A program made the translations under genes and the position numbers. DNA of 64,000 nt from Candidatus Bipolaricaulota bacterium (GTDB lineage: Bacteria; Patescibacteriota; Patescibacteriia; UBA11705; DATKZF01): assembly GCA_035528115.1 (NCBI GenBank), contig DATKZF010000003.1, positions 227,795 through 291,794 on the forward strand, in the 5' to 3' direction. Shown here piece after piece: positions 2,002 to 64,000 of the stretch (position 1 is the first letter of the stretch; every line of letters starts with the position of its first letter). Below the pieces are notes generated by a model. It had not been told where the DNA came from. It did no database searches and worked only from the letters and a program-made list of their open reading frames with translations.

Positions 2002-2085
2002 ATCTGCTAAATTCTAAACACGAAATCCTAAATTCTAAATAAATCTCAATTTTCCAAATCACAAATTCTAAACTTTTAAAAAATT

Positions 2086-2100
2086 TGAACATTGGAATTT
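2086..2100 (-). promoter_or_regulatory. Shared upstream motif TTCCAATGTTCAA(A), about 85 nt upstream of recO. Candidate common operator.
   Basis: The same motif sits 100 nt upstream of ruvX (2624-2640). Neighbouring AAATTCTAAA direct and inverted repeats are present in both intergenic regions. Confidence 0.35.
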
Positions 2101-2123
2101 GTTTAAAATTTCGATATTATAAT

Positions 2124-2522
2124 TTAGGATTTATCCAAATAAGCTTGCAAAATAATCATAGCCGCCAATTTATCGTCAACCAGCTTTACCTTGTCTCTTT
2201 TCTCGGGAATCTCTTTGGCCAAGGATTCGGCCTGTTTGGTGCTGAATCGCTCATCCTGCCATTTAACCTCGATGACTTCCGCCAAAGCGTCGAACAATCG
2301 AGCCAATTCACCGGGAGTCTCATCTTCTCCTTTTAAATTAACGGGCTTCCCCAGCACCGCCGATTCAATTTCTTCTTGCTTGATGATTGTTTTCAACTCA
2401 TTCAATAATTCATCAAATCCTTTGTTCTTGATCGTTTTAAATCCAAAGGCCAGCTTGGTGATATCATCGCCGAGCGCCAAACCCACTTTGCTTTTACCGT
2501 AGTCAATGCCCAAAAATTGCAT
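2124..2522 (-). CDS. ruvX: Holliday junction resolvase-like RuvX/YqgF
   Basis: 132 aa. 'MQFLGIDYGKSKVGLALGDD...DERFSTKQAE...LAAMIILQAYL' matches the YqgF/RuvX pattern. Confidence 0.8.
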   Translation of the reverse strand: MQFLGIDYGKSKVGLALGDDITKLAFGFKTIKNKGFDELLNELKTIIKQEEIESAVLGKPVNLKGEDETPGELARLFDALAEVIEVKWQDERFSTKQAESLAKEIPEKRDKVKLVDDKLAAMIILQAYLDKS

Positions 2523-2623
2523 AAAATCATTTTTTAAATCCTAATCTCGAAATTCTAATTTCTAAACAATTTTCAAAATACAAATTTTCAAATTTCAAAA
2601 ACAGATAAAGTTTAAAATTTTGA

Positions 2624-2640
2624 ACATTGGAACATTAAAA
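2624..2640 (-). promoter_or_regulatory. Second copy of the TTCCAATGTTCAA motif, upstream of ruvX
   Basis: 'tttgaacattggaacatt' compared with 'tttgaacattggaatttg' at 2085-2102. Confidence 0.35.
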
Positions 2641-2679
2641 ATTGTTTAGTATTTAGAAATTAGGATTTAGAATTTCTAA

Positions 2680-3450: not shown

Positions 3451-4085
3451 ACTCTTATCTTCAAAATGATTTGCTTGAATACCTTATCTATCTCCTTGCT
3501 GGCGTCTATCTCGCGCACGGCCACATTATCAAATTGTCGAAAAAAATCAAGCAACGGCGCGGTGGATCGACGATATATTCCCAACCTCTTTCGAATCGAT
3601 TCGGCATGATCATCTTTTCGCTGTATCAATTTATCGCCGCATTCATCGCACACACCCTTATTTTTGGGAGGATTATTATCGAGATGATAAATTTTACCGC
3701 ATCGCGGACATATTCGCCTCCCGCCGATTCGCTCGATCGCGGTTTTATTGTCCAATTTTAAAGCAATGACTGTCAGCGGCGACTTTCTTTCCGTTAAAAA
3801 GGTCTCCAAGGCTCTGGCTTGATTTTTATTTCTGGGAAATCCGTCGAGAATGAAATTTTTGCCTCGTTCTTTCAATTCATCCATGATAATTTCAATGATG
3901 ATTTCATCGGGCACCAACCTACCCGATTTCAAATCTATTTTTCGACCGATAGACGTTCTTTTTTTGACTTCTTCTCTTAAAATATCTCCGGAAGAAATAA
4001 CTTTCAATTTGTATTTTTGAGCTAATTTTTTGGCTTGAGTGCCTTTGCCCGAGCCCTGCGGACCCATTATTAAAATATTTTTCAT
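3447..4085 (-). CDS. adk: Adenylate kinase with a zinc-binding lid
   Basis: P-loop 'GPQGSGKGTQA'. The lid carries CPRCG...CDECG (C4 zinc knuckle). Confidence 0.9.
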   Translation of the reverse strand: MKNILIMGPQGSGKGTQAKKLAQKYKLKVISSGDILREEVKKRTSIGRKIDLKSGRLVPDEIIIEIIMDELKERGKNFILDGFPRNKNQARALETFLTERKSPLTVIALKLDNKTAIERIGGRRICPRCGKIYHLDNNPPKNKGVCDECGDKLIQRKDDHAESIRKRLGIYRRSTAPLLDFFRQFDNVAVREIDASKEIDKVFKQIILKIRV

Positions 4086-4179: not shown

Positions 4180-5451
4180 TTAAAACCCATCGTAATCTCT
4201 CATTACCACTTGCGATTCTATCTGCTTCACCGTCTCAATAACCACGCTGACCACGATGAGCAAACTGGTGCCGCCGATCACGAGCGACGTCATGCCCGTG
4301 GCTTGCCTCATAACCAGCGGTAAAACCGCGATCACGCCCAAAAACAACGCGCCAATCAAAGTGATTCTTTTGATGGTATTGCTCAAATACATTTCAGTAT
4401 GCTGACCGGGTCTGATGCCTGGAATAAAGCCGCCCTGTTTTTGCAAATTTTCCGCAATCTGTCCGGGATGGAAAATAACGGCGGTGTAAAAATAAGTGAA
4501 GCCGAAAACCAACAAGAAATAAAGCACTCCGTAAAAAAGCTGGTTTTGAAAAACATTGATTACGAACTGCGCCAAGTGAGCGATAAACTCGGTCTTGGCG
4601 TTGACAAAAAACTGAGCGACCATGGACGGAAACAATATCAAAGAAATCGCGAAAATAATCGGTATCACGCCGGCCTGATTTACTCGCAGCGGCAGATGAG
4701 TGCTCGAGCCTCCGTACATTTTCATGCCGCGAACGCGTCTGGCGTAAGACACCGGAATATTGCGCTGTCCTTCGGTAATTACCACCACGCCGATAATCGT
4801 AATCAAAGCGATGGCTACAAACACCACCAATGTCACCAAGTTCGATCGATCGAAATTAATCAATGTCTGTTGAATGATTTGAGGGATTCTGGAAACGATG
4901 CCGGCGAAAATTATCAATGAAATGCCGTTGCCGATTTTTTTATCGGAAATCAATTCGCCGATCCAGACCAAAAACATGGTGCCCGCCGATATGGTGATGA
5001 TCATGGCGATGTATTGAAAAAGACTTTTATCCGCAATGATCTGTTGCGACGATTGTCCCAAAATTCGAATCATGGCGTACGCCTGCATTACCGCCAATGG
5101 GATGGTGGCAATCCTGGTGTACATGTTGATTTTCTGTCTGCCGACTTCTTCCTTTTGCATTTCTTCAAGCTTCGGCACGATCATGCCCAAAAGCTGAAAA
5201 ATAATGGAAGCTGTAATGTACGGCGCCACGCCCATCATCACGATGGAAAAGTTTTCCATGCCGCCGCCCGAAAAAATATTCAACAATCCCAATATCTCAT
5301 TGGAAGCGAAAAATTCTTTTAAGTTGGCGAGATTGATGCCGGGAATCGGAATATGCGCCGCGAATCTAAAAATGGCCAACATGACCAGCACGTACAAAAT
5401 GCTGTTTCGCAAATCTTTTATTTTCCAAATCTGGGTCAATTTTTCCCACAT
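4180..5451 (-). CDS. secY: Preprotein translocase subunit SecY
   Basis: 423 aa polytopic membrane protein. Its position after rplO is conserved. SecY-like TM pattern. Confidence 0.95.
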   Translation of the reverse strand: MWEKLTQIWKIKDLRNSILYVLVMLAIFRFAAHIPIPGINLANLKEFFASNEILGLLNIFSGGGMENFSIVMMGVAPYITASIIFQLLGMIVPKLEEMQKEEVGRQKINMYTRIATIPLAVMQAYAMIRILGQSSQQIIADKSLFQYIAMIITISAGTMFLVWIGELISDKKIGNGISLIIFAGIVSRIPQIIQQTLINFDRSNLVTLVVFVAIALITIIGVVVITEGQRNIPVSYARRVRGMKMYGGSSTHLPLRVNQAGVIPIIFAISLILFPSMVAQFFVNAKTEFIAHLAQFVINVFQNQLFYGVLYFLLVFGFTYFYTAVIFHPGQIAENLQKQGGFIPGIRPGQHTEMYLSNTIKRITLIGALFLGVIAVLPLVMRQATGMTSLVIGGTSLLIVVSVVIETVKQIESQVVMRDYDGF

Positions 5452-19912: not shown

Positions 19913-19934
19913 CCTGCCTGCCGGTAGGCAGGCA
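19913..19934. repeat. CCTGCCTGCC-GGTA-GGCAGGCA palindrome, 20 nt upstream of the rpsL start. One member of a family.
   Basis: 8-bp perfect stem. The same core 'cctgcctgccggcaggcagg' recurs at 21091-21110 and 52044-52063. Confidence 0.6.
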
Positions 19935-21090: not shown

Positions 21091-21110
21091 CCTGCCTGCC
21101 GGCAGGCAGG
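21091..21110. repeat. 20-bp perfect palindrome 'cctgcctgccggcaggcagg' (family member)
   Basis: Seen directly. It is embedded in a longer imperfect inverted repeat. Confidence 0.7.
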
Positions 21111-21308
21111 CGGTCGAGATGACAACAGCGTCGGCCTTGTTTCTCTATTTTTCTGTCTCATGTTCTTTTGTTTCATGCTTAATGATCCATGATACGTGTT
21201 ATGTGATACGTGCTATGTGTTCCGTGTTTCATGATCAAGACTTGATTTATTTTAACATACATGTTAAACTATTTCCATAATTCAGTAATTAACTAACGTC
21301 ACTATAAT

Positions 21309-21940: not shown

Positions 21941-22158
21941 GAAATAATAAACCTCGCAACTGCCTGCCCGCCAAAACTTCAAATAAGCCTACAAGTGGCG
22001 GGCCTGCCCGCCGAAGCTCGAAGAGCGTAGGCGGGAGCTACAAGCCCTTGGGTCACATAGCACGTATCATGAAACATGAAACATGAAGCATGGGGCATGG
22101 GGCATTAAACAACATGCCGACTCATTATAGCCGATTTTTAAAATTTTTCCAAGGGGTT

Positions 22159-29194: not shown

Positions 29195-29421
29195 CGGTCT
29201 TCTCCTTTCGACGGTTGACGATACTATATCGTAATGAATAAAAAAATCGCTGTCAAACGACCGGCGATTTTTTTATTATGTGCTACGTGTTACGAATTAC
29301 AATCGACTACTTAGCTTTCAAGCGATTGTTACGAATTACAAGATCCTTAGGCTTAAAGCTGTAAATGAATGTAATTTGTAACAATGCTCCATGATACGTG
29401 ACCCATGATACGTGATACGTG

Positions 29422-32400
29422 TTACACGTCTTCCTTGTCTCTGCCAAACTTCAAGTACAAAATCGGCACCACCATCAAAGTCAACACCATGGAAAAGCTT
29501 AAGCCGAAAACGATCGAGTAGCCCAGAGGCCCCCAAGTGGAATCGGACATGGCCAAAGGCAATATGCCGCAGACCGTGGTGATCGTTGTCAGCAAAATGG
29601 GACGAACTCTGGTCATGCAAGCGTCGGCAATGGCGTCCGGTTTGGACATGCCCACGGCGATATTTGAAGTGATTTTATCAATTAAGAAAATAGCGTTGTT
29701 GACCACGACGCCGGCCAAAGCGACCAAGCCGATCGCGGCCGGGAAACTGAGAGGCATATTCACCAAAAACAATCCGGGCAAAACCCCGATCAAGGCCAAA
29801 GGAATAGTGACCAAAATGAAAGCCACTTTTCTGAAAGATTTGAATTGCAAGACCAGCAAAGAGCCGATCATCACCACGCCGATGACAAAAGCGTACAATA
29901 AATCGGTGAATGACTCCTGAATATCTTCGGTCTCTCCGCCTTGGCTGACAATATAACCTTCTGGGATTACCAGCGCGGCCTGCTTTTCCGTAATCTTGTC
30001 ATAAATATCCTGCACGGACGCGCTTTCCTTAACATCTGAAGTAACGGTCATGATCCTGTCTCCGTCCAAATGAGAAATGGACGGCCTGCTGTAGCCTATG
30101 CCGCTATCGGTGAAACTGCTGATCGGAATGCCTCCGGACAAAGTGGCGATGTCAATCGACTCGATCGCGTTTATATCAAGAGCCTTGTCACCGGCGCCGT
30201 TGGCGTCCAAATCGTATTTAACCACCACATCAATGTCGTCCCCGCCTTCTCGAAGCACCGTGGCGCTCGTGCCGCTGATCGCGTTTCTCAAAGTGGCGGC
30301 GATCTGCATGGTGCTGACGCCGTACAGCTGAGCTTTCAAACGATCGATCGTAATAACGAATTCACCCGGAGATTCTTGAACGGAAGAAGAGACGGCTTTG
30401 GTGCCGGGAATTTCATTCAACATTTTTTCATATTCCTTCGCCAAAGATTCCAACACCTCAAGCTTTGGTCCGATGATTTTTATTTCCACCGGCGCGCCGG
30501 CGGGCGGACCTTCGTCCATCAAGGAAATGGTAATATCGAGTTTGGTAAAAGATTTAAACTTTTCATTATACTCATCGGCTATTTGCGCGCTCGTTTTTTC
30601 CCGTTCTTCCTTCAATTTAACGATAATATAAGCTTGATTGGAAGTGTTTGAATCCACAGAGACAAAACTGCCCGCGCTGGACTGCGAACCGATGACCGTC
30701 AAAAACGATTTCACGCTATTATCCTCGTACAAAATATTCTCAACTCCCAACGCTTGCCGATCGGTAACGGTCAGCGGCGTGCCCGCCGGCATTTTCATAT
30801 CAATGTAAATCAACTCATAATCCGAAATGGGGAACATATTGACTTCGAGCAAACCCGTCACGGGCAAAGCGACCGCGCCGACAAAAGCGATCAACACAAC
30901 AATGATAAACGCGGTTCTTTTCGCTTTGCTTCGCATGTAAGATTCTATTTTATTTTGATACCAACGATAAAACGGGCCGAGCAAACGCTCCCGTAAATTT
31001 CCCAAGGTGATTTTTTTCTGAAATTTACTATTTAAAAAATTTATTTCCGGCACGGGCAATTTATTCTTCATCACTCTGGCGGAAATGGTCGTCAAAAATC
31101 CCAGCGACACCGCGAATGAACCGATTAAAACCACGGTGATGGTGAAAGGAATGCTTTCAATGAATTTGCCGATGATGCCTCCCACGAACATCATGGGCAA
31201 AAAAGCGAAAACCGTGGTCAAGGTGCCCGCGATCAACGGCCACTGAAATTCTTCGATCGTGCGATATACCGCTTCTTTGACCGGCACTCCCCTGTTTCTA
31301 TATTTATTAATGCCTTCGCTCACCACAATGGAGCAATCCACCAACATGCCCAAACCCAAAATCAAGGAGAACAAAGAAAGAAAATTAATGGTGTAGCCGA
31401 ACTGATATAAAAAGATAAAAGTGATTAAAAAAGTCATGGGCACGGCCAAACCCGTTAAAATAGCCTCTTGCCAACCCAAAAATATCAAAAGCAAAACTAT
31501 TATAATAATGATAGTGGAAAGTCCGTTCGCGCTCAATCGACTCAGATCTTCTCTGACATATTGAGCCATGTTTTCCGTGACTTCAAATTCGATTCCTTCG
31601 GGCAAAATATCTCCCTTTACTTGATCCAATATTTCCATCACCTGCCGCTCGATGTTCACGATGTTGCCGCCGCTCACTTTATACACGGATAAAGACACGG
31701 CCGACTGCGACTGACCGCCGTCCAAACTCAATCTGGACACGCTGGCGGCTTCCACATAACCGTCAACGACTTCGGCCAGGTCATTCACGGTGATTACCGT
31801 ATCGCCGATACTGGCGATCGGCACGCGACTGATTTCTTCCACCGAAGACAGTCTGCCCGCGAACCTGACCAAATATTTGGTGTCCGACGTTTCGATCGAG
31901 CCGGCAGGAATATCGCTATTGGCCGAGGCGATCATGGAAGTTACCGACGACAGCGGCAAGCCATAGCCGTCGAGCTTGACTTTGTCGACAATGACCGAGA
32001 TTTCCCGGTCTTGGCCGCCGGATATTTTAACTTTGGATACTCCGCTGATGCTTTCCAATTGCCCTTGGACGCTTTTCGCGTATTCCACCAATTGATTTAT
32101 CGGAAACGGTCCGCTCAAAGAAAATGTCAAAACCGGCGTGTCGCTGAAATTCAATTTGCGGACGGAAGGATCGCTGGCGTCGCTCGGCAATTGCGTTTTA
32201 GCCTCGTCAACCGCTTCTTTGAGCGCCGACACTTTTTGATCCACATCCGCGTCAATATCGAATTGAACGAAAATAAATGATAAACCGCTGCTTGATTCCG
32301 AAGTGACGATATCCAATTCGTCCAAACTTTTTATTTTATCTTCGATCGGATCCGTCACCAATTCTTCCACATCTTCCGGGCTGGCGCCGGGATATGGCGT

Positions 32401-42410: not shown

Positions 42411-45400
42411 TTATTCACTTGGAGGTAAAGCCGGAGTCTGTTCGGCAGGCGCGGGTTCAACGGGCGTCGGCTCGATCGGCTCAGGTTCGACGGGAACGGG
42501 TTCGATCAGCGCTGGTTCTGCCGGAGTCGGCTCTGGCAAAACAGGTTCCTCGATTATTGGCTCGCTTGCCGGCTCAATGGGTTCCTCCGGCGCGTCAATA
42601 ATTTCTTCCGGAGCGATTGGCTCTTCTTCGGGAATAATGGGTTCATCCGGCGCAACGGGTTCAATATTGTTCTCCCCGAAAACCTGCTGAATTAAATCCG
42701 CGCCCAAAACTATCACCAAATCGCTGTTGCCGTAAAAACCGACTTCCCCGCTCATCAAATCAAACGGCACGACTTCTCCGCCCGTAATGCTTTGAATTTC
42801 CAGCAAAGCGTTTTGATCAATATTCAAATCGACCTGATAAATTTCAGTATTATCATAGCGCATGATCGGATCTTGACCTATATAAACGGTATAACCCAGC
42901 CCGCGCAAACTTTCCACGATATTTACGATATCCAAATTCGCTCCGTTAAGCAAAGTGATTTCAATCATTGACCGATCAATGGTCACTTCCGGTAAAACCG
43001 GCTCGCCGGCGTCCGCTTCGTTGCCCACGACTCCGAAAGCCAGCCAGGAAAAATTTATTGAGAAGGCGCAAACGCCATTATTATTGAACGTCTCTTCCGG
43101 CAAACAAAGCGGCTCGGCTATGTTTATGGTGAACCCTTCTTTGCTCTTGCCGGTAATGACGAATCTGCCGTCCCAGATGTCAAAAGCGTTGTCGGCCGCG
43201 GTCAAACCGTATAATTCCGGGGTCACGGAAATTCTGGGCAATTCTTCATAAGGCCTATCGAAATTGACCTTAACGAACGTCAGATCCGCCGAAGCGATGG
43301 TCGCGACTCCGGACATTTCGTCGCTGACATAAATTCTCTTTTCAGCGGTCAGATCTCCGGCCACGCTCAAACCGCCTTCGACTCGCAAGTCCGCCAAAAT
43401 CTTCATGTCCGTTTTCACTTCCAAATATTTGTCCGCTCCGTCAGGATAAACGACAGTCAAGACTTCGGCCAAGGAAGAATCGGTTAAATTAAGAGCCGCG
43501 TCCGGACCGATGATGGCCGAAATGGGATCGGAAACCAAATCTCCGGATCCTTCAAGCAAGGCCGCGGCCAAGGCGTTCGAGCCGTTATTTCTGGAAATTA
43601 AAACTTTGATGCTGTCAGACCCCGAGAACAAAGATTCCAACGCGATACCGATGGTCGGATCGCCGAGCGAAGCTTTCATGGCCACGCCGGGGATTGACGA
43701 GGTCGTCAAATAATCTCCTTGCCTGATGGCGCCGTTTTCGACATTGACTTTGGTGGGCAACTGTCCGATCAAACCGATCAATTTGTAATGTGTGTTGTTG
43801 TCGCCGTACCGATCGTTGCCGACAAATGCCGGGGACGTAGACACCACTCCCATGGCCAGCGCGTCCGACGAGGCAACGCAACGTTTCACCCCGTTGCTGT
43901 GTGCTCTGTCCACGCAAACTATTTCTCCGGGCACAAGATTAGAATCAATACTGAAGAAATATTCCGCATAGTCGGATCCGGTGGAAGCGTAAGTGACGCC
44001 ATCCGCGCCATTGCCGTGGATTTTTCCTCCTTCGGTGCCGTCGCCGTCCGCGAACTGCACCCATTTATTCGTGGCGCCAAAGCCCGCGTCTTCTCCGGCC
44101 TGAATCCAGACTCCCATATTGCCGGTGGTGCCGCCGTCATTGAATACTTTCAACGAATAATCCGAAGATTTGCTGTTGATCTCAGCGTCGCCGTTGATTC
44201 TAAAAAGCTGGTTGGCGATGGAACTCGCGAATTCCCCGTAAACCAAAGACAAAGTTTGATCTTGAAGTCTATTGGAGTTAGCAGAAGCTTTACTGCTTAT
44301 ATACAATTTATAAGAATCGGAAGTGGTGGTGGCGGAAGCTCCGGCATAAGATCCAATGGCCACATTATAAGTTCCAGTATCCAAATCATCCAAGGCGTAG
44401 TTTCCCAGCGCCACATTATATGAACCCGTGGTAAAATCATCCAGGGTCGACCTGCCTATACCGATATTATAATTGCCCCCGGCTGATGTTCCCGCTCCCG
44501 CCGCATTGTAACCGACGCCGATATTGTATGTTCCGGTGAGAATGTAATATCCGCTTTGAAAGCCAATCATGGTATTAGATCCTCCAGTCGCTCTATATAA
44601 CGAATCAGTACCAACCGCGGTGCTGTAACTGTTTGTTGAAATTGCTTGCAAAGAATTTCTGCCGACCGCTACATTCTCGTGGCCGCTAGTATTTGAATCA
44701 AGGGTGTTAGCGCCAACAGCAACACTGTCAAAACCACCTGCGGTGGCGGTCATTGAGTTAAACCCAATTGCCACGTTGTAATATGCCGTATCATCAGCGA
44801 CCGCCAAGGCGCTGCTTCCTATCGCCACATTATGATGAGCTAGAGAAGTTGCCACTGAACTCAAAGCGTTATTACCCATCGCCACATTATTGGCACCGAC
44901 ATTATTAGTCATGGCTCCGGAGCCTACCGCTACATTATAGTCTCCGGTATTAAGCATCAGGGCCTCATAACCAATGGCGGTATTATAACTGTTTGCGCTG
45001 ACCGCTGATAATGATGAATATCCAACTGCGGTATTGTATGATCCCGTATGGGAATTCATGGCATTATATCCCACCGCCGTGAGACCAGACTGGGTGTTCG
45101 CCGTCTGCAACACGCCCGGACCTATACCGACGTTATAATCGCCCGTGGTGAGAGCGGCCAGCGCTGACTCGCCGACAGAAATATTGTATGTGCCTCCGGC
45201 CTGAACCACCGCCAGAGCGCTCGGACCGACGGCCACCGAATTGTTGTCAAAATCAAGATAACCGCTGCCCACTGTCAATCTCTTCCCGGCGACATTAAAC
45301 CACAATTCAGCATCAGCGGTCGCGTTAGAGCCGATGACCAAATCATCATTGCTTGCGGTTAAATATGTAAAAGTTCCGGCATCGGTAAAAAGACCGGATC

Positions 45401-48400
45401 CTCCCGGCGCGGCGCCGGTCAGGCTCGCCCAAGTCGCGCCCGTGTAGCCTTCAAAATCCCCTCCCGTCCAGCGCAAATTACCGGCCGTGGTATCATCCGT
45501 ATTGCCTATTCTGATGCCGTCGCTGAAACCGACCACGGTGGCCGTCGCGTTGTCGATGATCGAACCGTTGCTGAGCTGAATGTCTCCGCTGGTAAAAGTC
45601 AGGCCGTTCATGTCAATTCCATAGCCCGCGCTGCCGCTGTCCGAAGCCAGACTGATATAACTGTCGATAAAAGCGTTTTTGGAAACGACTTGCAAACCGT
45701 ACGCTCCGTTGACTTCAGTTCCGGAAGCATCGACGATAATTTTACCGCCGTAAATGCTGTCCGCGGACGCGCCTCCCGAATTGGTCACGGACACATTGAA
45801 TCCATATAACTTTTGAGCGACCGCGCTTTGATTGGTTAAAGCGAAATTGTAACCGTACAAAGAACCGCTGAAACCCGCTTGTCCCAAGGCCGAACCGCCG
45901 TATCCGGTCGCATTTCCGCTGCCGGAATGATATAGAAGATTGTCAAAACCCGTTAAACTGCCCGCCCCGGAATGCGAAAGGATGTTCCATGAACCTCTTA
46001 CCGAACCGACACCGTCAAAGCCGCCTTGTCCGGTATCCGCAAAATCCCAAAAAGTGTAACCGACTATATCAGAAGTGGCGGTCGTGCCATCAACATTCAC
46101 ATTATTTGCGATGCGCAAAGTGCCGGCCTCATCAGCGGCATGGATTCCCAGCGTAATTTGCTGGCCCATTAAATTATTATATGCTCCCGTTAAAGCGGCC
46201 GATGAGCCCGCGTAAATATCTATCGCCTGAAGATTGTTGGTGTTGCCGCGGAAATTAACGTCCAAGGCGGCCGACGCGTGAGCGTCGCTTGAAGCGTCAA
46301 TGGCCAATTGCTGCGAACCGACCGTATTGTTGAATAAAAACGGAGCGTCAGCCGTGGCATTTGAACCGATAACCAAATCATCGCCGCTAGCCGTTAAATA
46401 TGTAAAAGTTCCGGCATCGGTAAAAAGACTTGATCCTCCCGGAGCGGCGCCGGTCAGGCTCTCCCAAGTCGCGCCCGTGTACCCTTCGAAATCCGCGCCC
46501 GTCCATCTAATATTGCCGGCCGTGGTATCGTCGGTATTGCCGATTCTGATGCCATCGCTGAAACCGGTTACGGTCGCGGTGGCATTGGAAATGATCGAAC
46601 CGTTGCTCAGCTCGATATCGCCACTGGCGAAAGTCAGTCCATTCATGGTCAAACCATAGCCGGCGCTGCCGCTGTCCGAGGTCAAACTGATATAATTTTC
46701 GATGTAAGCGTTTTTTGAAACTATCTGCAATCCGTAAGCGCCATTAACTTCGGCCCCGGACGCGTCAACCGTAATTTTTCCTCCATAGATGGAATCCGCT
46801 GACGCGCCTCCGGAATTGGTCACGGCAATATCCATGCCAAGCAAACTCTGCGCGGACGCGCTTTGATTGGTTAACGTAAGTTTGTAGCCGTACAATGACC
46901 CGCTGAATGAACCCGAACCATACACTTGCGGATTCACTCCATAAACGGTGCCGCTGCCCGAGCTGGTGGTGGAGCCGCCAAGGCCGGTTACCGAACCGCT
47001 ACCCGTATGCCACAAATAATTTTGAAAACCGGTCAGACTACCGCTGCCCGTATGGGAGATTAAAGAATACGCGCCGGTCGCCGAACCGACTCCGGACAAA
47101 CCATCTTGTCCGGTCTGAGAATTATCGAAAAAAGCGTAACCAATGATATCCGAAGTGGCGTTCGTGCCATCCACGTCGACATTATTCGCAATGCGAAAAG
47201 TGCCGGCCGTGTCCGCCGCGTTATAACCCAGCGTGACTGCTTGACCGAAAAGAAAAGCGCTGGCGCCCAAACCCGCTGATGACCCAGCGTAAATATCAAC
47301 GGCTTTAAGATTATCCGCGCTGCCGCGAAAATCAATATTCAAAGCTGATGTCGCGTTAGCGTCCGTGGAAGCATTAATTGCCAATTGACGCGAACCGCTG
47401 GTAGGGTCAAATAAAAACGGAGCGTCAGCCGTGGCGTTCGCGCCGAAAACCAATTGATCGGTCGAGGCCGTCAAATACGTGAACGAGCCGGCATCCGTAA
47501 ACAAACTGCCGCCCGGTCCGATGCCCGCGATGGCCGCGTCCAAATCTTCGATCACTCCTTGCACATTATTTTTCGTTGAATAAGTCAAACCATCGGAATA
47601 CACGCCGACATTATACGCGCCGCTGTCATCGGCGGCCGTAAATTCGCCCAAGGCGGTGGTGCCGATCACCAAGTCGCTGGACGCGGTCAAAGTCAGTTGA
47701 TTAACCACGGTTAAATTTTGTCCGAAATAGCCGTCATCTTCCACGTAAAGTCCGTAATCCCAAGCCGTGCCCGCCTGATAAATGGCGTATTCATTGCCGG
47801 CGCCGGCAGCGCCTTGCAAATCTTTGATATAAAGTCCGTACAAAGCGTCGCCGTCGGTCGCGTCTTGAGTGGCGGTCATTTGCAAAATCGACATGGTGTT
47901 GGCGCCGGAGTTCGTATTGGCCGTGAATTGCAAATTCAAAGCGTCGCCCGTCGTTCCCGAAACCGTATGTGAATATTTGCCCGTGACAATTTCGTCTTCA
48001 GCCAAAATGGCGAATCCGTCACCGTCCTGACCGTTTAATTTACCCGCGTTAATCGCGTAAGCCACGGCCGTGATTTCTTTTCGGGGCGACATCTCGCCAT
48101 CCCAAGACGCGGCGCCGGCTTTGCCGCCGACTTCCACGCTCAGCCAATAACCGGCTTCGGTCTGAAAATCGAGCGTGGCCGGAAAGGCCATCAAATCTCC
48201 GAGCTTCAATGAAAATAATCCCGAATCAACCGTCGCCAACGAAGTCGTGTCAGTCCAAGTCTCCGTCCAAAGCAAATCACCTGCGCTTTCGGCGTTGTAA
48301 ATTTTGAATCTGACATGATAATATCCGTCTTTGACTTCTTTGCCGTTGCTGTCAAAAAGCCTGGCTTGATAATTCAAATAATTGCTCACCGCGGCTTTGG

Positions 48401-52030: not shown

Positions 52031-52070
52031 ATTCCCGCGAAAGCCTGCCTGCCGGCAGGCAGGCGGGAAT
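52031..52070. repeat. Extended palindrome 'attcccgcgaaagcctgcctgccggcaggcaggcgggaat' (family member)
   Basis: Seen directly. Intergenic, upstream of femAB. Confidence 0.7.
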
Positions 52071-59100: not shown

Positions 59101-60477
59101 TCAAATCTCGTAATCTTGTATATTCAACTTCCTCAATACCGTAAACTCCGGCGCTGGCCTATCCAGTCCAATCAAAACACTCAAACCCTGCCCGCCATGA
59201 GCTTCGGTCAATGGCTCTTTGGTCTTTGAATCAAACATTTCCTTTATGGTCATTGAAAAATTTTCACCCTTTGGCGCCACCAGCTCCACCTCGTCTCCTA
59301 TTTTAATAACATTATGAACCTTGACTTCCGCATATTTGTAATTATTCGTAATTTCATCATTTTTTGTATTTGTAACCATCCCAACGAATTCATAATCGCA
59401 ACCCTCATGCCCGCTCTCATACCTTTGCTCGACATTTTCTTTTCCAAATAAAAATCCGGTCGTAAATCCGCGATTGATGTTTTTTTTCAATTCTTCTTTC
59501 AATCTTGCCGCTATGTTTTTGAAATCTTTTTCATTGATTGAATCAATCGCTTGGCGATAAGCTTTGGTGGCCGTGGCCGCGTAATAAACGCTCTTGGCCC
59601 GACCTTCAATTTTAAAGCTCGACACGCCGGCCTTTGCCAAATCCTTCAAATATTCAATCAAACACAAATCTTTGGAATTTAAAATGTACGTTCCATGCTC
59701 GTCTTCGGTTATTTCCAAAAATTCTCCAGGCCTTTTCACTTCTTCAATATAAAAATCCGATCTTTTATTTTCGAGGGATCGGAAAGGCAAGCTTTCCGCC
59801 GGTGATTTTCCCTCCATTAAAATATCATCCATTTTTTTTATTTTTGATATTTTATTTTTTATTTTATATTCCCACCGGCACGGCTGCGTGCAATCGCCCA
59901 GGTTGGCGCTTTGATTCATAAAATATTTCGACAATAAACATCTGCCCGAATACGACACGCACATGGCGCCGTGAACGAAAGCTTCCAATTCGACCTCGGG
60001 AACTTTTTCGTGAATTTCTTTGATCTGATCAAGCGTGACTTCGCGCGCCAAAATGATTCTTTTCACTCCTTGATCAAACCAAAACTTGGCCGCGCGCCAA
60101 TTCGTGCAATTCGCTTGCGTGCTAAGATGAATTTCCGCCTCCGGCCAAATTTCTTTGATCAAAGTCAAAACTCCGGGATCGGAGACGATCAGCGCATCCG
60201 GTTTTATTTTTTTCAATTCAAGCAAATATTTTTCAAGCTCGGGCAAATGAAAATTGTGCGCGAAAATATTAACCGTGATAAAAACTTTTTTGCCCAGATC
60301 ATGAGCGTATTCAATGCCGTCTTTCAAACATTCCAAATCGAATTGATTGATTCGAACCCGAAGCGAAAAATCCGGAATACCGCAATACACCGCGTCCGCT
60401 CCAAAAGCGAATGCAGTCTTTAATTTTTCCAAATTTCCGGCCGGGGCCAGCAATTCCGATTTTATAAAATCGTTCAT
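59101..60477 (-). CDS. Peptidase U32 family protein (YhbU/RlhA-like)
   Basis: 458 aa. 'ELLAPAGN...GADAVYCG', 'E.FVHGAMC.SYSGRC' are U32 signatures. Confidence 0.85.
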   Translation of the reverse strand: MNDFIKSELLAPAGNLEKLKTAFAFGADAVYCGIPDFSLRVRINQFDLECLKDGIEYAHDLGKKVFITVNIFAHNFHLPELEKYLLELKKIKPDALIVSDPGVLTLIKEIWPEAEIHLSTQANCTNWRAAKFWFDQGVKRIILAREVTLDQIKEIHEKVPEVELEAFVHGAMCVSYSGRCLLSKYFMNQSANLGDCTQPCRWEYKIKNKISKIKKMDDILMEGKSPAESLPFRSLENKRSDFYIEEVKRPGEFLEITEDEHGTYILNSKDLCLIEYLKDLAKAGVSSFKIEGRAKSVYYAATATKAYRQAIDSINEKDFKNIAARLKEELKKNINRGFTTGFLFGKENVEQRYESGHEGCDYEFVGMVTNTKNDEITNNYKYAEVKVHNVIKIGDEVELVAPKGENFSMTIKEMFDSKTKEPLTEAHGGQGLSVLIGLDRPAPEFTVLRKLNIQDYEI

Positions 60478-60515
60478 ATTAACGAAATTTTAGCATATTT
60501 TGGGAAAAAATCAAT

Positions 60516-60599
60516 GGCGCGGGCGGACGGGCAATCGCCCGTTGTAGAGACGCGCCATGGCGCGTCTCTACGCGCCGCAACGCGGCGCCCGCCCGCGCC
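60516..60599. repeat. GC-rich composite palindromic element, copy 1 (outer 11-bp stem enclosing three hairpins)
   Basis: 'ggcgcgggcgg acgggcaatcgcccgt tgtagagacgcgccatggcgcgtctctac gcgccgcaacgcggcgc ccgcccgcgcc' in a ~40% GC genome. It shares its core with 61593-61651. Confidence 0.7.
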
Positions 60600-60605
60600 A
60601 ATCAA

Positions 60606-60636
60606 AAAACCGCCTGATTGGAATTTGGCGGTTTTT
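60606..60636. terminator. Bidirectional hairpin terminator
   Basis: 'aaaaccgcc tgattggaatttg gcggtttttt': a 9-bp stem flanked by A-run and T-run. Confidence 0.5.
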
Positions 60637-60640
60637 TATT

Positions 60641-61579
60641 TTAAATTCTTTTATGCCTGATCAACCCAGAACACGGAATTATTTCCAGCTTCTTTTTTTC
60701 CAATTGATCCAAAAGCAAATTGACGCCGATCGAATCAGATGACATATGCCCGGCGATCAGAGCGTTCAAATGATTTTTCTCCGCTTCTTCTTTATGCTGT
60801 TCGCTAATGTGCATGCCGATGATCGTGCCAATGCCGGCATTGGCCATCTTTTCGTAAATCTGCGGATTGCCTTCCGTGCCGCCCGTAATTTCAGTAATCG
60901 CTATTTTGCCGCAACGATTGTTTTCATGACCGGAAAAAAGCATTGGTCCGGCGCCCATCTTTCTCGCTTCCTCATATTCCGGAATCGCGTTGAAAAGCTT
61001 CATCAAATCTCCGACGTATTCGAATTTCTTTTTCGAAATTTGTTTTTTCAAAAAATCAGCCACCAAATTATCGCAAATGGTGTGGCAACATATGAAATTG
61101 ATATCAAGCAGTTGGGCGGCGTCCACAGCGCTGTTGTAATTTTTGCTCCCGACATTTCGCGCCACCTCGGAAATCTTCACCTTAAAAAGTCCTTCGGCCA
61201 CATTGACGGGCACTCCGTATCCGGCCAACACCTCGACTTGAAGATCAATCACTTGCGGCACGTTGGCCAGGGCTTTGCCTCGAGGATGATGGGAAATCAC
61301 CAAATCCACGCCCAGTTCTTTGGCCAAAAGAATTTCAGCGGTATCAATATCTATGCCGACCAAAATCTTTTTCACCTCTTTTTTATTGTCATACAAAATC
61401 GCGGAATCAGCGTACGGATTGACCAGCCGATCCTTGTCGAAGAATCTTTTTTCCTCTTTGGACGCTTTGTCGAAAAGATCTTTTTGTCTGGCCAAATATT
61501 TTTGCACGGACTTTGTCCCGCGAAGATCCGCGGCTTGACCCATCTTTAAAGCCAATTCGAATATTTGTTGTACTTTCAT
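60641..61579 (-). CDS. Nif3-family dinuclear metal centre protein (YqfO/YbgI-like)
   Basis: 312 aa. 'DLVISHHP' and a C-terminal 'GHMSSD'-like metal-ligand pattern. Confidence 0.75.
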   Translation of the reverse strand: MKVQQIFELALKMGQAADLRGTKSVQKYLARQKDLFDKASKEEKRFFDKDRLVNPYADSAILYDNKKEVKKILVGIDIDTAEILLAKELGVDLVISHHPRGKALANVPQVIDLQVEVLAGYGVPVNVAEGLFKVKISEVARNVGSKNYNSAVDAAQLLDINFICCHTICDNLVADFLKKQISKKKFEYVGDLMKLFNAIPEYEEARKMGAGPMLFSGHENNRCGKIAITEITGGTEGNPQIYEKMANAGIGTIIGMHISEQHKEEAEKNHLNALIAGHMSSDSIGVNLLLDQLEKKKLEIIPCSGLIRHKRI

Positions 61580-61592
61580 ATTGTTATTTAAA

Positions 61593-61651
61593 GCGCGGGC
61601 GACGTGTAGAGTCGCGCCATGGCGCGTCTCTACACGTCGCCCGCCCGCGCC
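61593..61651. repeat. GC-rich palindromic element, copy 2
   Basis: 'gcgcgggcgacgtgtagagtcgcgccatggcgcgtctctacacgtcgcccgcccgcgcc': an about 24-bp stem centred on CCATGG. Confidence 0.7.
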
Positions 61652-61654
61652 ATA

Positions 61655-64000
61655 TTAATTTTTCTCCAACCCAAACCAAACTTCCTTGCCATTGATTTTA
61701 AGCTGCGCGCAAGCGCTGTCTTCAAGCTCTTTTTTCCCTTCGATTATTTCATCGACCAAAGTCTTTTTCTTTATCTCTTCCCCGAATTCTCCGGTCAAAA
61801 TCTCGCGCAAATCCTCCTCGGATGTTTCGAAATATATTTTCGCCCGATCCTCAATGGAATAACCCGCGCCTTTTCTCAAATTATTGATTGACCTGATGAT
61901 TTCCCTGACCAAACCTTCCTTTTCCAACTCGGGAGTGATTTCCGTATTCAACGCCACTTTAACGGGCGCGTCCTCGATCGTTCGCCATTCTCCCCCGTAA
62001 GTCAAATCGGAGACCACGCTGATTTTTTTCACGTTCAATTCGTCTTTGATCAAGTCCGAATACTCATCCTTAAATTTATGATCAACGATTTCCAGCTCGG
62101 ACAGAGCCTGCCTGACTTTGACTCCTTTTCTCTGCCTGATGGCCAGACCGATTTCAATGACTTGCTTGGCTTTGTCCATCATGGACAAAACATTTTGATC
62201 AATTAGCTTTTCGTCAAACAAAGGCCAATCTTCCAGATGAACCGATTTTTTCTCCCCGCCGATGCGGTCATAAATGAATTCGGCCAAAAACGGAGTGAAC
62301 GGCGCCATGGTTTGGCTTAAAGTCATCAAGGATTGATAAAGCGTCGATAACGCGGCTTCTTTGTCCGCCAAGTCATCGCCTTTGACTCGTTCCCTGCTTC
62401 GGCGCACGTACCAGGTCGATAATTCGTTGATAAAATCCTGAATGCTCTTTTGAGCGCGATTCAAATCATACTTGTTCAAATTCTCCGTGACTTCCTTGAC
62501 CATCAAATTCAATTTGCTGAAAATCCATTTGTCCAAAATATTTTCGCCGGAAACGATTTTCGGTTTCTCGGTCGCGTACATCAAATAAAACGACAACACA
62601 TTGGTGGCCAGCAAAATCACTTTTTTGTAAACTTCATCAACGCCTTTTTCGCTGAACCGTAAATCTTCAGCTCGCACCACGGGCGAGGACATCAGATAAA
62701 ATCTGAGCGCGTCCGCGCTGTATTTATCGACCACGGCCATGAGATCCGGATAATTCTTTTTCGATTTGGCCATTTTCTGCCCGTCTTCGGCCAAAACCAT
62801 GCCGTTGACCACCACGTTCTTGAACGCGGGTTGGTCAAACAAAGCGGTTGATAAAACCAGCAAGGTGTAAAACCAGCCGCGCGTTTGATCCTGGCCTTCG
62901 GCGATGAAATCGGCCGGAAAATGATTTTTGAAATATTCTTCGTTTTCAAAGGGATAATGCATTCGAGCGAACGGCACTGATCCGCTTTCCATCCAACAGT
63001 CAAAAACTTCCGGCACCCTTTGCATGGCGGAGCCGCATTTTTCGCACGGAAACATTATCTTATCCACGAAATGTTTGTGAAGATCAGTCACTTTCTGACC
63101 GCTTAATTCTTCGAGCTCTTTGATCGAGCCAACCACTTTCTTTTCCCCGCACACGCATTTCCAAACCGGAATCGGATTGCCCCAAAATCTGGCTCGAGAA
63201 ATCGACCAGTCGCGGACGTTCTCCAGCCATTTGCCGAACCGTCCTTGTTTCAAATGCTCGGGCATCCAATTTATTTGATCGTTCATTTTAATCATTTCGT
63301 TTTTTATATCCGTCACTTTCACGAACCACGAGGAGGTGGCGTAATTTAAAAGCGGGGTGTCGCAACGCCAACAATGCGGATAGCTGTGTTCGAAATCTTC
63401 GAATAAAAAAACATTGCCTTGCGCGGCCAAAAAAGCTACTATTTCCTTGTCCGTTTTGGTGGGATCGCCCTTGGGTTTGACTTCCTGTCCGGAAAATTCG
63501 CGAACCTGATCAATGAATTTACCGTTTGGCGTCACATGCTGAATGAAAGATAAATTTTTCTCTTGTCCCAAATTAAGATCGTCTTCGCCGAAAGCCGGGG
63601 CAATATGCACCACGCCCGTGCCTTCTTCCGTGGACACGAAATCCGCGGAGACAATTTTGTATAAATTTTCCTTATTCGGCAGTTCCTCGCTTAAAAAATA
63701 ATCGAACAGCGGGACATATTTTTTGTTTTCCAATTCCGCCCCCCTGATCTTCTTTATGAATTCAAACTTGAAATCGCGGTTGGCCTCGGTCTCGTGAAAA
63801 ACAAACGATTTGTCTCCCTCGGAATATTCCGCGTAATGTCCGAACACTCTCGGTTCCGCGGTCTGCGCCAAAATCAAAAGTTCCTCGGCTCCGCCATCGA
63901 CTTCTTGTTTTTTCCAAATTGAATAATCCATGTCCGCGCCCACGGCCAAAGCCACATTGCCCGGCAACGTCCACGGCGTGGTCGTCCAGGCCAGCACGAA
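61655..64000 (-). CDS. ileS: Isoleucine--tRNA ligase, type 2 (partial; N-terminus beyond the window end)
   Basis: 'WTTTPWTLPGNVALAV' and 'KMAKSKKNYPD' (a KMSKS variant followed by NYPD) match the type-2 IleS pattern. The ORF is open to the window edge. Confidence 0.85.
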   Translation of the reverse strand, partial: FVLAWTTTPWTLPGNVALAVGADMDYSIWKKQEVDGGAEELLILAQTAEPRVFGHYAEYSEGDKSFVFHETEANRDFKFEFIKKIRGAELENKKYVPLFDYFLSEELPNKENLYKIVSADFVSTEEGTGVVHIAPAFGEDDLNLGQEKNLSFIQHVTPNGKFIDQVREFSGQEVKPKGDPTKTDKEIVAFLAAQGNVFLFEDFEHSYPHCWRCDTPLLNYATSSWFVKVTDIKNEMIKMNDQINWMPEHLKQGRFGKWLENVRDWSISRARFWGNPIPVWKCVCGEKKVVGSIKELEELSGQKVTDLHKHFVDKIMFPCEKCGSAMQRVPEVFDCWMESGSVPFARMHYPFENEEYFKNHFPADFIAEGQDQTRGWFYTLLVLSTALFDQPAFKNVVVNGMVLAEDGQKMAKSKKNYPDLMAVVDKYSADALRFYLMSSPVVRAEDLRFSEKGVDEVYKKVILLATNVLSFYLMYATEKPKIVSGENILDKWIFSKLNLMVKEVTENLNKYDLNRAQKSIQDFINELSTWYVRRSRERVKGDDLADKEAALSTLYQSLMTLSQTMAPFTPFLAEFIYDRIGGEKKSVHLEDWPLFDEKLIDQNVLSMMDKAKQVIEIGLAIRQRKGVKVRQALSELEIVDHKFKDEYSDLIKDELNVKKISVVSDLTYGGEWRTIEDAPVKVALNTEITPELEKEGLVREIIRSINNLRKGAGYSIEDRAKIYFETSEEDLREILTGEFGEEIKKKTLVDEIIEGKKELEDSACAQLKINGKEVWFGLEKN

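Follow-up and report, generated by a model that had tools for sequence, protein, structure and literature searches.

The two GC-rich structured elements that bracket the nif3 gene of this Patescibacteria genome are each best read as a copy of a "double-foot" REP (repetitive extragenic palindrome, GTAG...CTAC) of the kind associated with subclass 2.4 (Group 4) of the RAYT/TnpA_REP family of HuH-Y1 transposases, set at or close to the tip of a GC-rich hairpin shell peculiar to this genome, the composite having then been copied locally around nif3; we place the probability of this reading at roughly three in four. The window, a 64,000-nt stretch of one contig, has a GC content of 44.2%, against about 77% in the two elements (60516–60599 and 61593–61651). 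Two odd GC spikes in the small, AT-rich genome of an episymbiont would thereby become a recognisable object, a RAYT Group 4 / subclass 2.4 REP.

The first-pass annotation of this DNA had described two elements with a common core, one on either side of a single housekeeping gene, the longer of them folding into an outer stem around three hairpins, and the sequence bears this out (Table 1). Its GC values of about 80% and 40% were approximate, and the strong contrast that they expressed stands. Element 1 (84 nt, 78.6% GC) has an outer stem of GGCGCGGGCGG (60516–60526) and CCGCCCGCGCC (60589–60599), which amounts to 12 bp with perfect terminal inverted repeats, TGGCGCGGGCGG and CCGCCCGCGCCA, when the pair T60515–A60600 is counted. 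Element 2 (59 nt, 76.3% GC), in which the terminal repeats are partial, forms one long, near-perfect 50-nt hairpin (61595–61644) with GCGGGCGACGT and ACGTCGCCCGC on either side of the core. Predicted RNA folds reach −75 to −77 kcal/mol for element 1 and −49 kcal/mol for element 2, and both elements score a z of about −9 relative to dinucleotide shuffles on either strand. In addition to the GC-rich outer shell, the two share the core GTAGAG(A/T)CGCGCCATGGCGCGTCTCTAC, which contains GAGACG/CGTCTC and CCATGG; copy 1 can fold as a 12-bp stem with a 4-nt loop or, as a perfect palindrome, over 14 bp. The 28-nt core is present at these two sites of the window and nowhere else in it (0 expected by chance), and the count remains two in the about 82 kb read of this genome (82 of the 438 kb of the contig). 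Both elements appear base for base on a Logan contig (run SRR8554643, 3 samples), from a run that may not be independent of the ENA assembly.

Table 1. Features of the nif3 locus, in window coordinates
Feature	Position	Strand	Basis or remark
Element 1, composite palindrome	60515..60600	.	Sequence, fold, GC; outer stem around three hairpins, a four-way junction on either strand
Side hairpin A, ACGGGC-AATC-GCCCGT (ACGGGCAATCGCCCGT)	60527..60542	.	Element 2 has just ACGT at the matching place
REP core copy 1, GTAGAGACGCGCCATGGCGCGTCTCTAC, GTAG...CTAC	60544..60571	.	Perfect 28-nt palindrome; equals the majority sequence of 96 copies in other genomes
Side hairpin B, GCGCCGC-AAC-GCGGCGC (GCGCCGCAACGCGGCGC)	60572..60588	.	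Missing from element 2
Element 2, shell GCGCGGGCG ... CGCCCGCCCGCGCC around the core	61593..61651	.	Sequence, fold; shell as in element 1
REP core copy 2, GTAGAGTCGCGCCATGGCGCGTCTCTAC	61606..61633	.	One uncompensated change, a T:T mismatch; same base on the Logan contig
NIF3-family gene (nif3), between the elements	60641..61579	-	PF01784
ileS, upstream neighbour of nif3	61655..64000	-	ORF; runs past the window end
Peptidase U32 gene, downstream neighbour of nif3	59101..60477	-	ORF, Pfam
nif3 intrinsic terminator, AAAAAACCGCC...GGCGGTTTTTT	60604..60637	-	Hairpin and T-run, symmetrical on both strands; between nif3 stop and element 1
Promoter-like site for the U32 gene, TTGATT, 16 nt, TG-TAAAAT	60487..60514	-	Consensus match only; abuts element 1

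The core belongs to a dispersed family, whose frame can be written as GTAGAGACG(N10)CGTCTCTAC or GTAGAGNCG(N10)CGNCTCTAC. The pattern was found at at least 120 loci in Cyanobacteria, Anaerolineae, Bacteroidales, Patescibacteria, Gammaproteobacteria, and Marinimicrobia, in unrelated contexts that include coding genes; the unit conserved between genomes is the 28-mer, nearly unchanged across at least five bacterial phyla, and the flanks are unrelated. A tailed-phage contig carries the core together with two variants and no RAYT, and a BLAST search of INPHARED phages and PLSDB plasmids with the exact core returned no match. The first-pass annotation had reasoned that a total of two copies would speak for local duplication rather than a repeat family. 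In fact both halves apply: the two same-shell copies within about 82 kb look like a local duplication, and the core is a member of a widespread family.

Covariation across copies, a check proposed with the first description, was assessed on 17 distinct 28-mers. Double compensatory changes occur at 4 of the 12 pairs, 97% of cells are paired, and one-sided (G-U) changes number zero. The foot and stem GTAGAGACG...CGTCTCTAC are near-invariant, while the apex varies freely yet is always self-complementary. Since the apex variants are strictly Watson-Crick and free of G-U pairs, the comparison favours a hairpin formed by DNA over an RNA motif.

This result bears directly on the reading in which the elements act for the host at the RNA level, as terminators, attenuators or mRNA-stabilising hairpins that evolved for the expression of ileS, nif3, and the U32 gene, with the similarity to other genomes convergent or secondary. 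The folds are indeed very stable on the transcribed strand, element 2 lies only 3 nt past the ileS stop and 13 nt ahead of the nif3 start, TTGATTTTTT comes after element 1 on the minus strand, and REPs elsewhere have been reported to stabilise mRNA (Di Nocera 2013). An identical 28-mer amid unrelated neighbours in several phyla cannot be convergent, however, and the uncompensated mismatch in element 2 is contrary to selection for RNA pairing; the lack of G-U pairs among the variants also counts against this reading. Relatives have no counterpart of the elements, and a canonical nif3 terminator already precedes element 1. An Rfam scan to E 1 gave nothing at gathering score for either element, just weak generic hairpin matches (E ≥ 0.05), and ARAGORN called no gene at either. 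We therefore regard host RNA structures as very improbable; the earlier proposal of structured RNA or a transcription boundary as the primary nature of the elements is left unsupported by the missing Rfam match, the same sequence on both strands, the unrelated contexts that include coding genes, and the absence of G-U pairs.

A candidate enzyme for the palindrome emerged from other genomes, in which RAYT genes were detected with an HMM built from RAYTs. RAYT genes lie beside the palindrome family or contain it in seven cases from six lineages and three phyla (L049, L105, L060, L008, L103 with two genes, and L022), with GTAGAGACG and CGTCTCTAC modules upstream, inside, and downstream of these genes. 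The exact 28-mer is located inside the RAYT gene or within about 100 nt of it in L049, L105, L008, and L022; variant or degenerate copies occupy this position in L060 and L103. Pfam Y1_Tnp exceeded its cut-off for two of the RAYTs, and JGI labels the homologues "REP element-mobilizing transposase RayT". Where the palindrome lies in frame within the gene it encodes the peptide VETRHGASL, and in five RAYTs, which represent three phyla, the REP-coded stretch ETRHGxSL always takes the same position behind the HuH motif. The residues shift with the palindrome apex, to VETGHAPSL in L103, which by sequence comparison argues that the conserved entity is the palindrome and not the peptide.

No gene family other than RAYT recurs at the palindrome, a finding that is hard to reconcile with a dyad-symmetric site for a host protein that binds double-stranded DNA, such as a repressor, a nucleoid protein, or a restriction or methylation enzyme. 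Such a site could account for the perfect dyad, which double changes maintain and in which G-U pairs are absent, and a methyltransferase gene and a DpnI-like gene lie about 3–4 kb downstream. The free, self-complementary apex is more in keeping with a hairpin than with a protein that reads specific bases of a duplex, and a single regulator common to Patescibacteria, cyanobacteria, and Bacteroidales is unlikely. Taken together, we give a duplex-binding site hardly any credence.

Assignment of the REP class follows Quentin et al. 2018 (PMC6006769; BMC Genomics 19:475), in which subclass 2.4 REPs bear 5' GT[AG]G and 3' C[TC]AC (the "double foot"), the REP descriptor asks for 7 bp or more of unbroken pairing at the base of the stem, a loop of 2–5 nt, and a stem GC of at least 50%, and in-frame REP insertions inside tnpA_REP were already noted. 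Both core copies have GTAG...CTAC ends and conform to this hairpin descriptor, copy 2 with one mismatch. Among the 28-mers in Table S1 of Quentin 2018 are GTAGAGACGCACGGCCGTGCGTCTCTAC (CaggA01) and GTAGAGACGTTGCATGCAACGTCTCTAC (CyspE01), which have the frame GTAGAGACG(N10)CGTCTCTAC in common with the core and place it in the same sequence family; the exact apex CGCCATGGCG has no entry in that table. Copies that flank a RAYT or lie in frame within one (a REPtron) occur in other genomes, and none in the window. We take the code CaggA01 to denote Chloroflexus aggregans, and CyspE01 presumably denotes a Cyanothece strain.

Subclass 2.4 corresponds to RAYT Group 4 of Bertels et al. 2017, which these authors found in 17 bacterial classes and commonly in Cyanobacteria, Chlorobia, and Caldilineae. 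The 16-mers flanking Group 4 RAYTs are low-copy, about 14 per replicon on average (Bertels et al. 2017), and the low copy count here is thus not unusual. The core agrees with double-foot REPs in its 28-nt length, its GTAG/CTAC ends, its foot and stem, identical to the Table S1 entries, and a taxon range of Cyanobacteria, Bacteroidetes, and scattered phyla. It differs in the Patescibacteria host, in the GC-rich shell and side hairpins, and in the lack of a RAYT in 82 kb. In the searchable literature REP or RAYT is never named together with Patescibacteria, and shell and side hairpins are part of no described REP. One exact 28-mer common to Cyanobacteria, Chloroflexi, Bacteroidales, Patescibacteria, Gammaproteobacteria, Marinimicrobia, and a tailed phage goes somewhat beyond the literature that we found.

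Classical REPs, BIMEs, and REPINs, the province of Group 2–3 RAYTs in E. coli and Pseudomonas (Nunvar 2010; Bertels & Rainey 2011; Ton-Hoang 2012; Di Nocera 2013), are likewise short palindromes outside genes, rich in GC and tagged with GTAG, located between co-directional genes near gene 3' ends. In contrast, their GTAG is unpaired at one end, whereas here it pairs with CTAC, a point against the REP reading; they number hundreds of copies per genome, whereas the 28-mer here appears to be low-copy; and their families are species- or genus-specific, whereas this 28-mer is nearly unchanged across phyla. A REPIN consists of two inverted REPs and a spacer, unlike the two feet fused in one perfect palindrome seen here. 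The nesting of the core in a longer hairpin resembles that of another group of repeats, the small dispersed repeats (SDRs). These 21–27-nt repeats of Nostoc and other cyanobacteria, reportedly described by Elhai et al. in 2008, are said to be shared among cyanobacteria and nested in hairpins and in each other; no enzyme is reported to be associated with them.

The borders of element 1 raise a different question. The 5-bp direct repeat ATCAA stands on both sides of it (60510–60514 and 60601–60605), with an estimated probability of about 0.005–0.01 of arising by chance in AT-rich DNA, and this counts against the REP reading because Y1 transposition would not make such a duplication. It could instead reflect a TIR-type MITE, the whole 86-nt element 1 having been inserted by a DDE transposase with a 5-bp duplication, element 2 being a decayed copy and the core a passenger. 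Shell termini common to both copies fit this idea, and the elements resemble known MITEs (Correia/NEMIS, RPE, Nezha) in being small, non-coding, intergenic, and foldable, element 1 adding its 12-bp perfect termini and possible 5-bp duplication. A target-site duplication was sought at the borders of element 2 and none was found, no transposase with such ends is present in the 82 kb read, and no parent insertion sequence is known. It is the inner 28-mer that is conserved between genomes, with unrelated flanks, and not the termini. A scan of the JGI metagenome collection for shell and core (GCGCGGGCG, 0–30 nt, GTAGAGNCGCGCCATGG) gave three matches, which we rejected as chance, being one homologous coding stretch of 74% GC in which the full palindrome is missing; shell and side hairpins were not found elsewhere in that collection. 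A MITE of this type is accordingly improbable. The miniature repeat of the first-pass annotation survives in spirit as a RAYT-linked REP with its core at many loci in several phyla, and not as a classical TIR/TSD MITE.

All genes at the locus are on the minus strand; the hairpin terminator that had been described as following copy 1 is real and, for this reason, lies ahead of element 1 as transcription runs. In relatives with a NIF3 65–72% identical, the order ileS-nif3-U32-ruvA is kept, both elements are missing, and the spacers are AT-rich; these spacers are not alignable with the present locus, so that absence of the elements is visible and insertion borders are not. Because the relatives keep the gene order without the elements, the comparison suggests that the elements arrived recently. 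It also led us to reject import of nif3 as a cassette by the two elements, as the ileS-nif3 adjacency and the ileS...U32-ruvA neighbourhood are kept in element-free relatives. A gene between two hairpins is formally IS-like, and the subterminal hairpins of IS200/IS605 are, similarly, DNA hairpins that an HuH-Y1 enzyme recognises in single-stranded form; the gene enclosed here, however, is no transposase but nif3, which has kept its ancestral position behind ileS, and IS ends are imperfect, unlike on left and right, and tied to a defined cleavage tetranucleotide.

Both copies occupy the sole harmless sites available, the gap between terminator and promoter and the gap between stop and start codons, and the elements are most likely selfish or neutral. 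Incidental effects on expression are conceivable. The hairpin of element 2 is followed by only TTT; if transcribed, it would, as a side effect, shield the 3' end of ileS or lower the expression of nif3. On the minus strand the outer stem of element 1, which encloses a multi-branch structure and comes after the canonical terminator, leads into TTGATTTTTT, and the two together could serve as a back-up terminator.

Under the subclass 2.4 REP reading, the palindrome would fold on single-stranded DNA into a 12–14 bp hairpin with a GTAG foot, and a RAYT would bind hairpin and foot, cut and rejoin the DNA, and so spread copies, by analogy with work on E. coli TnpA_REP. Binding and cleavage of single-stranded DNA are known for E. 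coli TnpA_REP only, and we know of no direct demonstration of RAYT-driven REP movement for subclass 2.4. A RAYT gene that bears the palindrome in frame could carry enzyme and site together between phyla, which would explain a near-invariant GTAGAGACG...CGTCTCTAC with a free, self-complementary apex. As both elements have the same shell, the sequence suggests that the composite of shell and core was copied locally, presumably into both spacers flanking nif3, after which the copies would have diverged by gain or loss of side hairpins.

A motif regular expression and an HMM built from five RAYTs detected no RAYT in the window, L121 and L131 (together about 82 kb of the 438-kb contig), in L122, or in any of the Patescibacteria core loci. 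The best 120 of about 8000 homologues from a RAYT profile search were nearly all cyanobacterial, and none was on the contig of the window or from a named Patescibacteria. The odds between a RAYT of this genome's own and orphan copies are, in our estimate, roughly even. A variant of the main reading holds that the two copies are orphan relics: the core would have entered the lineage in a single horizontal transfer, through phage or recombination, no RAYT would ever have been resident, and the second copy would have arisen by local recombination, gene conversion, or template switching. It accords with the lack of a RAYT and with only two copies, 1 kb apart in the same shell, in the 82 kb, with the phage contig that carries the core and two variants and no RAYT, and with other Patescibacteria loci that have one or two core copies per 8 kb and no RAYT. 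The 82 kb are a sample only, outside which lie 81% of the contig and all other parts of the genome, and a pair of copies in one shell is met again in a Parcubacteria genome that is unrelated, suggesting reproducible copying and not a one-off accident. Orphan relics, which would alter just the origin of the copies here and not the identity of the core, are a serious possibility that we nevertheless consider doubtful.

The Parcubacteria case, L024, has two same-shell copies, in an AT-rich shell, that bracket gatC; the nearest GatA relative is 61% identical, and other assemblies of the same organism have identical copies without polymorphism. It could be that in Patescibacteria a RAYT-type palindrome, unlike its cyanobacterial relatives, settles in the tip of a longer hairpin or forms that tip itself and that the composite copies itself into the next intergenic spacer, in genomes in which no RAYT is seen, yielding same-shell pairs around single housekeeping genes (nif3 here, gatC in L024), an idea that we regard as speculative and rather unlikely. 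If true, it would imply a preference for hairpin tips as targets and a short-range copying mode, both undescribed for REPs, or else copies supplied in trans. A supply in trans would have as its source phages or the host bacteria of these episymbionts, and the palindrome would then trace DNA traffic between Patescibacteria and their hosts. The nesting and same-shell pairing in Patescibacteria are somewhat beyond the literature found, and if they held genome-wide they would offer a handle on how very small elements choose targets and are copied. To our knowledge, target choice and self-copying have been demonstrated directly for no REP.

Two smaller observations concern assembly and annotation. 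The Logan contigs L122 and L173 terminate within the palindrome; we set these ends aside as proof of repetition, since coverage loss at a hairpin is an equally good cause, and the 28-nt repeat is presumably shorter than the assembler's k-mer. In gene prediction, the palindromes give rise to spurious ORFs (MARLY..., VETRHGASL...).

The NIF3-family gene (nif3) stands between two GC-rich palindromic elements, element 1 and element 2, in a part of the window where the minus strand carries every gene. Element 2 borders lie 3 nt past the ileS stop and 13 nt ahead of the nif3 start. Element 1 is predicted to fold, on either strand, into an outer stem of 11–12 bp around three hairpins, and element 2 into a single near-perfect hairpin of 50 nt; the stability of both folds is ~9 standard deviations beyond that of shuffled sequence. 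Common to both is a 28-nt palindromic core, GTAGAG(A/T)CGCGCCATGGCGCGTCTCTAC, whose only two occurrences in the window are these (chance expectation 0). Both elements are also present, base-for-base identical, on a Logan contig that derives from run SRR8554643 and is reported in 3 samples. The coordinates, the folds and this contig copy bear out the first-pass annotation, which had described two GC-rich palindromic elements with a common core around nif3.

Features of the nif3 locus and copies of two short palindromes (L-numbers denote fetched loci or contigs)
Feature	Position	Strand	Description
ileS	61655 to beyond 64000	minus	gene
Element 2	61593–61651		59 nt, 76% GC; occupies ileS–nif3 spacer
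nif3	60641–61579	minus	gene between the two elements
nif3 terminator	60604–60637		precedes element 1 in gene direction
Element 1	60516–60599		84 nt, 79% GC; past nif3 terminator
Promoter-like site	60487–60514		for U32 gene; adjoins element 1 directly
U32 peptidase gene	59101–60477	minus	gene
ruvA		minus	gene beside ileS, nif3 and U32
Core and variants, L130	1556–1583, 3212–3240, 4778–4805		IMG/VR contig
CCTGCCTGCCGGCAGGCAGG, exact	21091–21110, 52044–52063		window
CCTGCCTGCCGGCAGGCAGG, one mismatch	19913–19932		window
CCTGCCTGCCGGCAGGCAGG	L121 4444 and 6337		just past window end
CCTGCCTGCCGGCAGGCAGG	L071 4703		another Patescibacteria MAG

The elements are best filed as double-foot GTAG members of the repetitive extragenic palindromes (REPs), belonging to the subclass 2.4/Group 4 system of the RAYT (TnpA_REP) transposases and set inside a genome-specific GC-rich hairpin shell. 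Most REPs fall into GTAG- or CGTC-tagged super-families (Di Nocera et al. 2013). Those of RAYT subclass 2.4 are long, with 5′ GT[AG]G and 3′ C[TC]AC ends, and are termed "double foot"; Table S1 of the same study includes GTAGAGACGCACGGCCGTGCGTCTCTAC (code CaggA01) and GTAGAGACGTTGCATGCAACGTCTCTAC (code CyspE01) in this subclass and does not contain the exact apex of the window core (Quentin et al. 2018, PMC6006769). Compared with the window core, these two REPs have an equal 28-nt frame, foot and stem, and differ in the apex alone. We take the codes to stand for Chloroflexus aggregans and a Cyanothece strain, respectively. Group 4, the counterpart of subclass 2.4, spans 17 bacterial classes, is common in Cyanobacteria, Chlorobia and Caldilineae, and has low-copy flanking 16-mers (Bertels et al. 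2017).

A motif scan of the fetched loci, followed by an HMM search, revealed RAYT genes in Coleofasciculus (L049), Planktothrix (L105), Fischerella (L060), Nostochopsis (L008), Bacteroidetes (L103, two genes), and a Gammaproteobacteria MAG (L022). Every one of these loci has GTAGAGACG / CGTCTCTAC modules beside and/or inside the RAYT gene. The exact 28-mer appeared inside the gene or within ~100 nt of it in L049, L105, L008, and L022, the last containing the exact core in its RAYT reading frame; the copies at the RAYT genes of L060 and L103 are variant or degenerate. Alignment of five RAYT proteins showed that the peptide encoded by the REP, (V)ETRHG(A/T)SL, always falls at the same site after the HuH motif, and in L103 a differing palindrome apex, GGGCATGCCC, gives the peptide VETGHAPSL. 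Because the peptide shifts with the apex, it is the palindrome rather than the peptide that is conserved. Two of these proteins passed the Pfam Y1_Tnp cut-off, and the JGI label on the RAYT homologues is "REP element-mobilizing transposase RayT".

A scan for the core with the pattern GAGNCGCGCCATGGCGCGNCTC, using one genome per species, returned at least 120 loci. The matches listed include many Cyanobacteria (Coleofasciculus, Scytonema, Fischerella, Westiellopsis, Planktothrix, Aphanothece, and others), three Anaerolineae MAGs, about a dozen Bacteroidales from rumen and gut, Patescibacteria (Falkowbacteria, Parcubacteria, Peribacteria, and other MAGs), two Gammaproteobacteria MAGs, and one Marinimicrobia MAG. 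Nearly all listed loci hold the whole 28-mer GTAGAGACGCGCCATGGCGCGTCTCTAC, and their flanks are unrelated. The core is a member of a widespread family. Tandem half-sites occur on one side of some copies (e.g., L001, L018, L066, L076, L109). An exact core also lies within the portal reading frame of L130 (IMG/VR contig 3300022555_000399), a 14-kb tailed-phage fragment with genes for portal, large terminase, head protease, major head, and tape-measure proteins; two apex variants are located in intergenic spacers beside its terminase gene, and no RAYT gene was found on this contig. Contigs of independent assemblies break inside the 28-nt palindrome (L122 end, L173 start, L065 start), which suggests that coverage drops or the assembly graph breaks at the hairpin. 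In the window and ~18 kb past its ends, approximately a fifth of the 438-kb contig, there are two core copies and no RAYT gene. The searchable literature yielded no paper that names REP or RAYT alongside Patescibacteria.

The first-pass annotation had also offered structured RNA as a candidate nature of the elements. Covariation was evaluated over 17 distinct 28-mers, 15 from loci and 2 from Table S1 of Quentin et al. 2018. In this set, 97% of cells were paired, compensatory changes on both sides appeared in 4 of 12 pairs, and one-sided (G-U type) changes numbered 0, while all slid controls collapsed. The apex covariation is not an ascertainment artefact, since the search pattern left the apex positions unconstrained. 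Strict Watson-Crick symmetry of this kind is predicted by a DNA hairpin, or by a process in which one arm copies the other, and not by RNA under selection. Neither element matched Rfam, and both strands are identical; together with the strict symmetry, these observations argue against a primary RNA function.

The names of NIF3 homologues mark the host as a Patescibacteria bacterium. Relatives with NIF3 65–72% identical retained ileS on the upstream side of nif3 and U32-ruvA on the downstream side, the 65% relative having thioredoxin and DUF218 genes between ileS and nif3. In the 70% and 72% relatives, where the ileS–nif3 spacer was readable, it is AT-rich, 147–176 nt long, and without a trace of an element; neither core nor shell was found in the 65% and 69% relatives. 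The absence from these relatives indicates that the elements arrived in the window's lineage. The idea that the elements brought nif3 along was rejected, as gene order is kept in element-free relatives. Past the nif3 terminator of the 72% relative (L125 1605–1685, L126 1375–1456), another GTAG REP, GTAGGGACAGAACACTGTTCTGTCCC, stands between two GGCGCGCGCC palindromes, so REP-like sequences recur past nif3 in this group. These GGCGCGCGCC palindromes resemble the shell ends of the window elements.

The shell is common to both window elements, with TGGCGCGGGCGG on one side of the core and CGCCCGCGC on the other. Judged by sequence, element 2 looks like element 1 minus two side-hairpin tips, or element 1 like element 2 plus two small palindromes. 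Flanks are unrelated between genomes yet common to these neighbours, which is most simply read as local copying of the shell-plus-core composite. A search of the JGI metagenome collection gave no further instance of the combination. A strikingly similar pair of the same layout occurs in the Parcubacteria locus L024 (Greene0416_36), where exact cores at 3713–3740 and 4213–4240, 500 nt apart, bracket gatC upstream of gatA; both copies have one and the same AT-rich shell (ggttgt..tttttt-core-aaaaaatta...). Other assemblies of this organism carry identical copies. Of 9 Patescibacteria copies, 5 (4 of 7 independent loci) continue the palindrome for 6 bp or more past the core, versus 1 of 93 other copies (Fisher's exact test, p ~4e-5), and symmetry past the core of cyanobacterial copies is limited to a T...A pair. 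The Patescibacteria REP thus typically caps a longer hairpin, which could reflect either insertion into existing hairpin tips or flanks turning palindromic afterwards. What is new here is the host group, the nesting, and the same-shell pairs, which fall short of a new class and merit a genome-wide check. Flush with element 1, taken as 86 nt with its T...A pair counted, is a 5-bp direct repeat, ATCAA (60510–60514 and 60601–60605); no such repeat is present at element 2. Y1 transposition is not known to leave a target duplication of this kind, so ATCAA either arose by chance (~1 in 100 to 200) or hints that insertion took some other route.

Both copies appear to sit in the sole spaces where insertion is harmless, element 1 in a terminator-to-promoter gap and element 2 in a stop-to-start-codon gap. 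If ileS and nif3 share a transcript, the element 2 hairpin (-49 kcal/mol) would be placed at the ileS 3′ end, just ahead of the nif3 start, where it could stop 3′ exonucleases or reduce translation of nif3. On the minus strand, TTGATTTTTT follows the element 1 outer stem, and the two might act as a second terminator. Such host effects are not needed to explain the presence of the elements.

A second short perfect palindrome, CCTGCCTGCCGGCAGGCAGG, has at least 5 copies in ~82 kb of the window genome and often caps a longer hairpin. It lacks a GTAG foot, and the REP table of Quentin et al. 2018 does not list it. The same palindrome occurs in 35 IMG/VR viral contigs (38–68% GC) with unrelated flanks, and in L167, L137, and L160 it lies inside tRNA-like sequence. 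About 4 kb before the window start on the same contig (L131 14430–14830) is a minus-strand cluster of tRNA-like sequences, one apparently split in the T-arm region by a GCCTGCC...GGCAGGC-armed hairpin and adjoined by a 24-nt GC-rich palindrome, CCACGTCGCTCGCGAGCGACGTGG. Units resembling CATGATACGTG form short repeats, tandem and inverted (window 21167–21235, 22053–22099, 29383–29437), that flank tRNA-Leu and tRNA-Ala genes on both sides and appear again 7–8 kb away. Three diverged direct repeats at window 45309–47507 (spacing ~1035–1080 nt, 74–84% identity, GC raised to ~52–53%) probably represent tandem repetition of a gene or domain. Dense AT-rich direct and inverted repeats, with arms up to 65 nt and 70–85% complementary, surround a small gene (2124–2522) at window 2023–2675. 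L121 4761–5942 and 13822–15241, partly past the window end, hold a Csx3-family gene and a methyltransferase plus DpnI-like pair, the former ~1 kb upstream of ileS and the latter ~650 nt downstream of ruvA, beyond a peptidase S51 gene.
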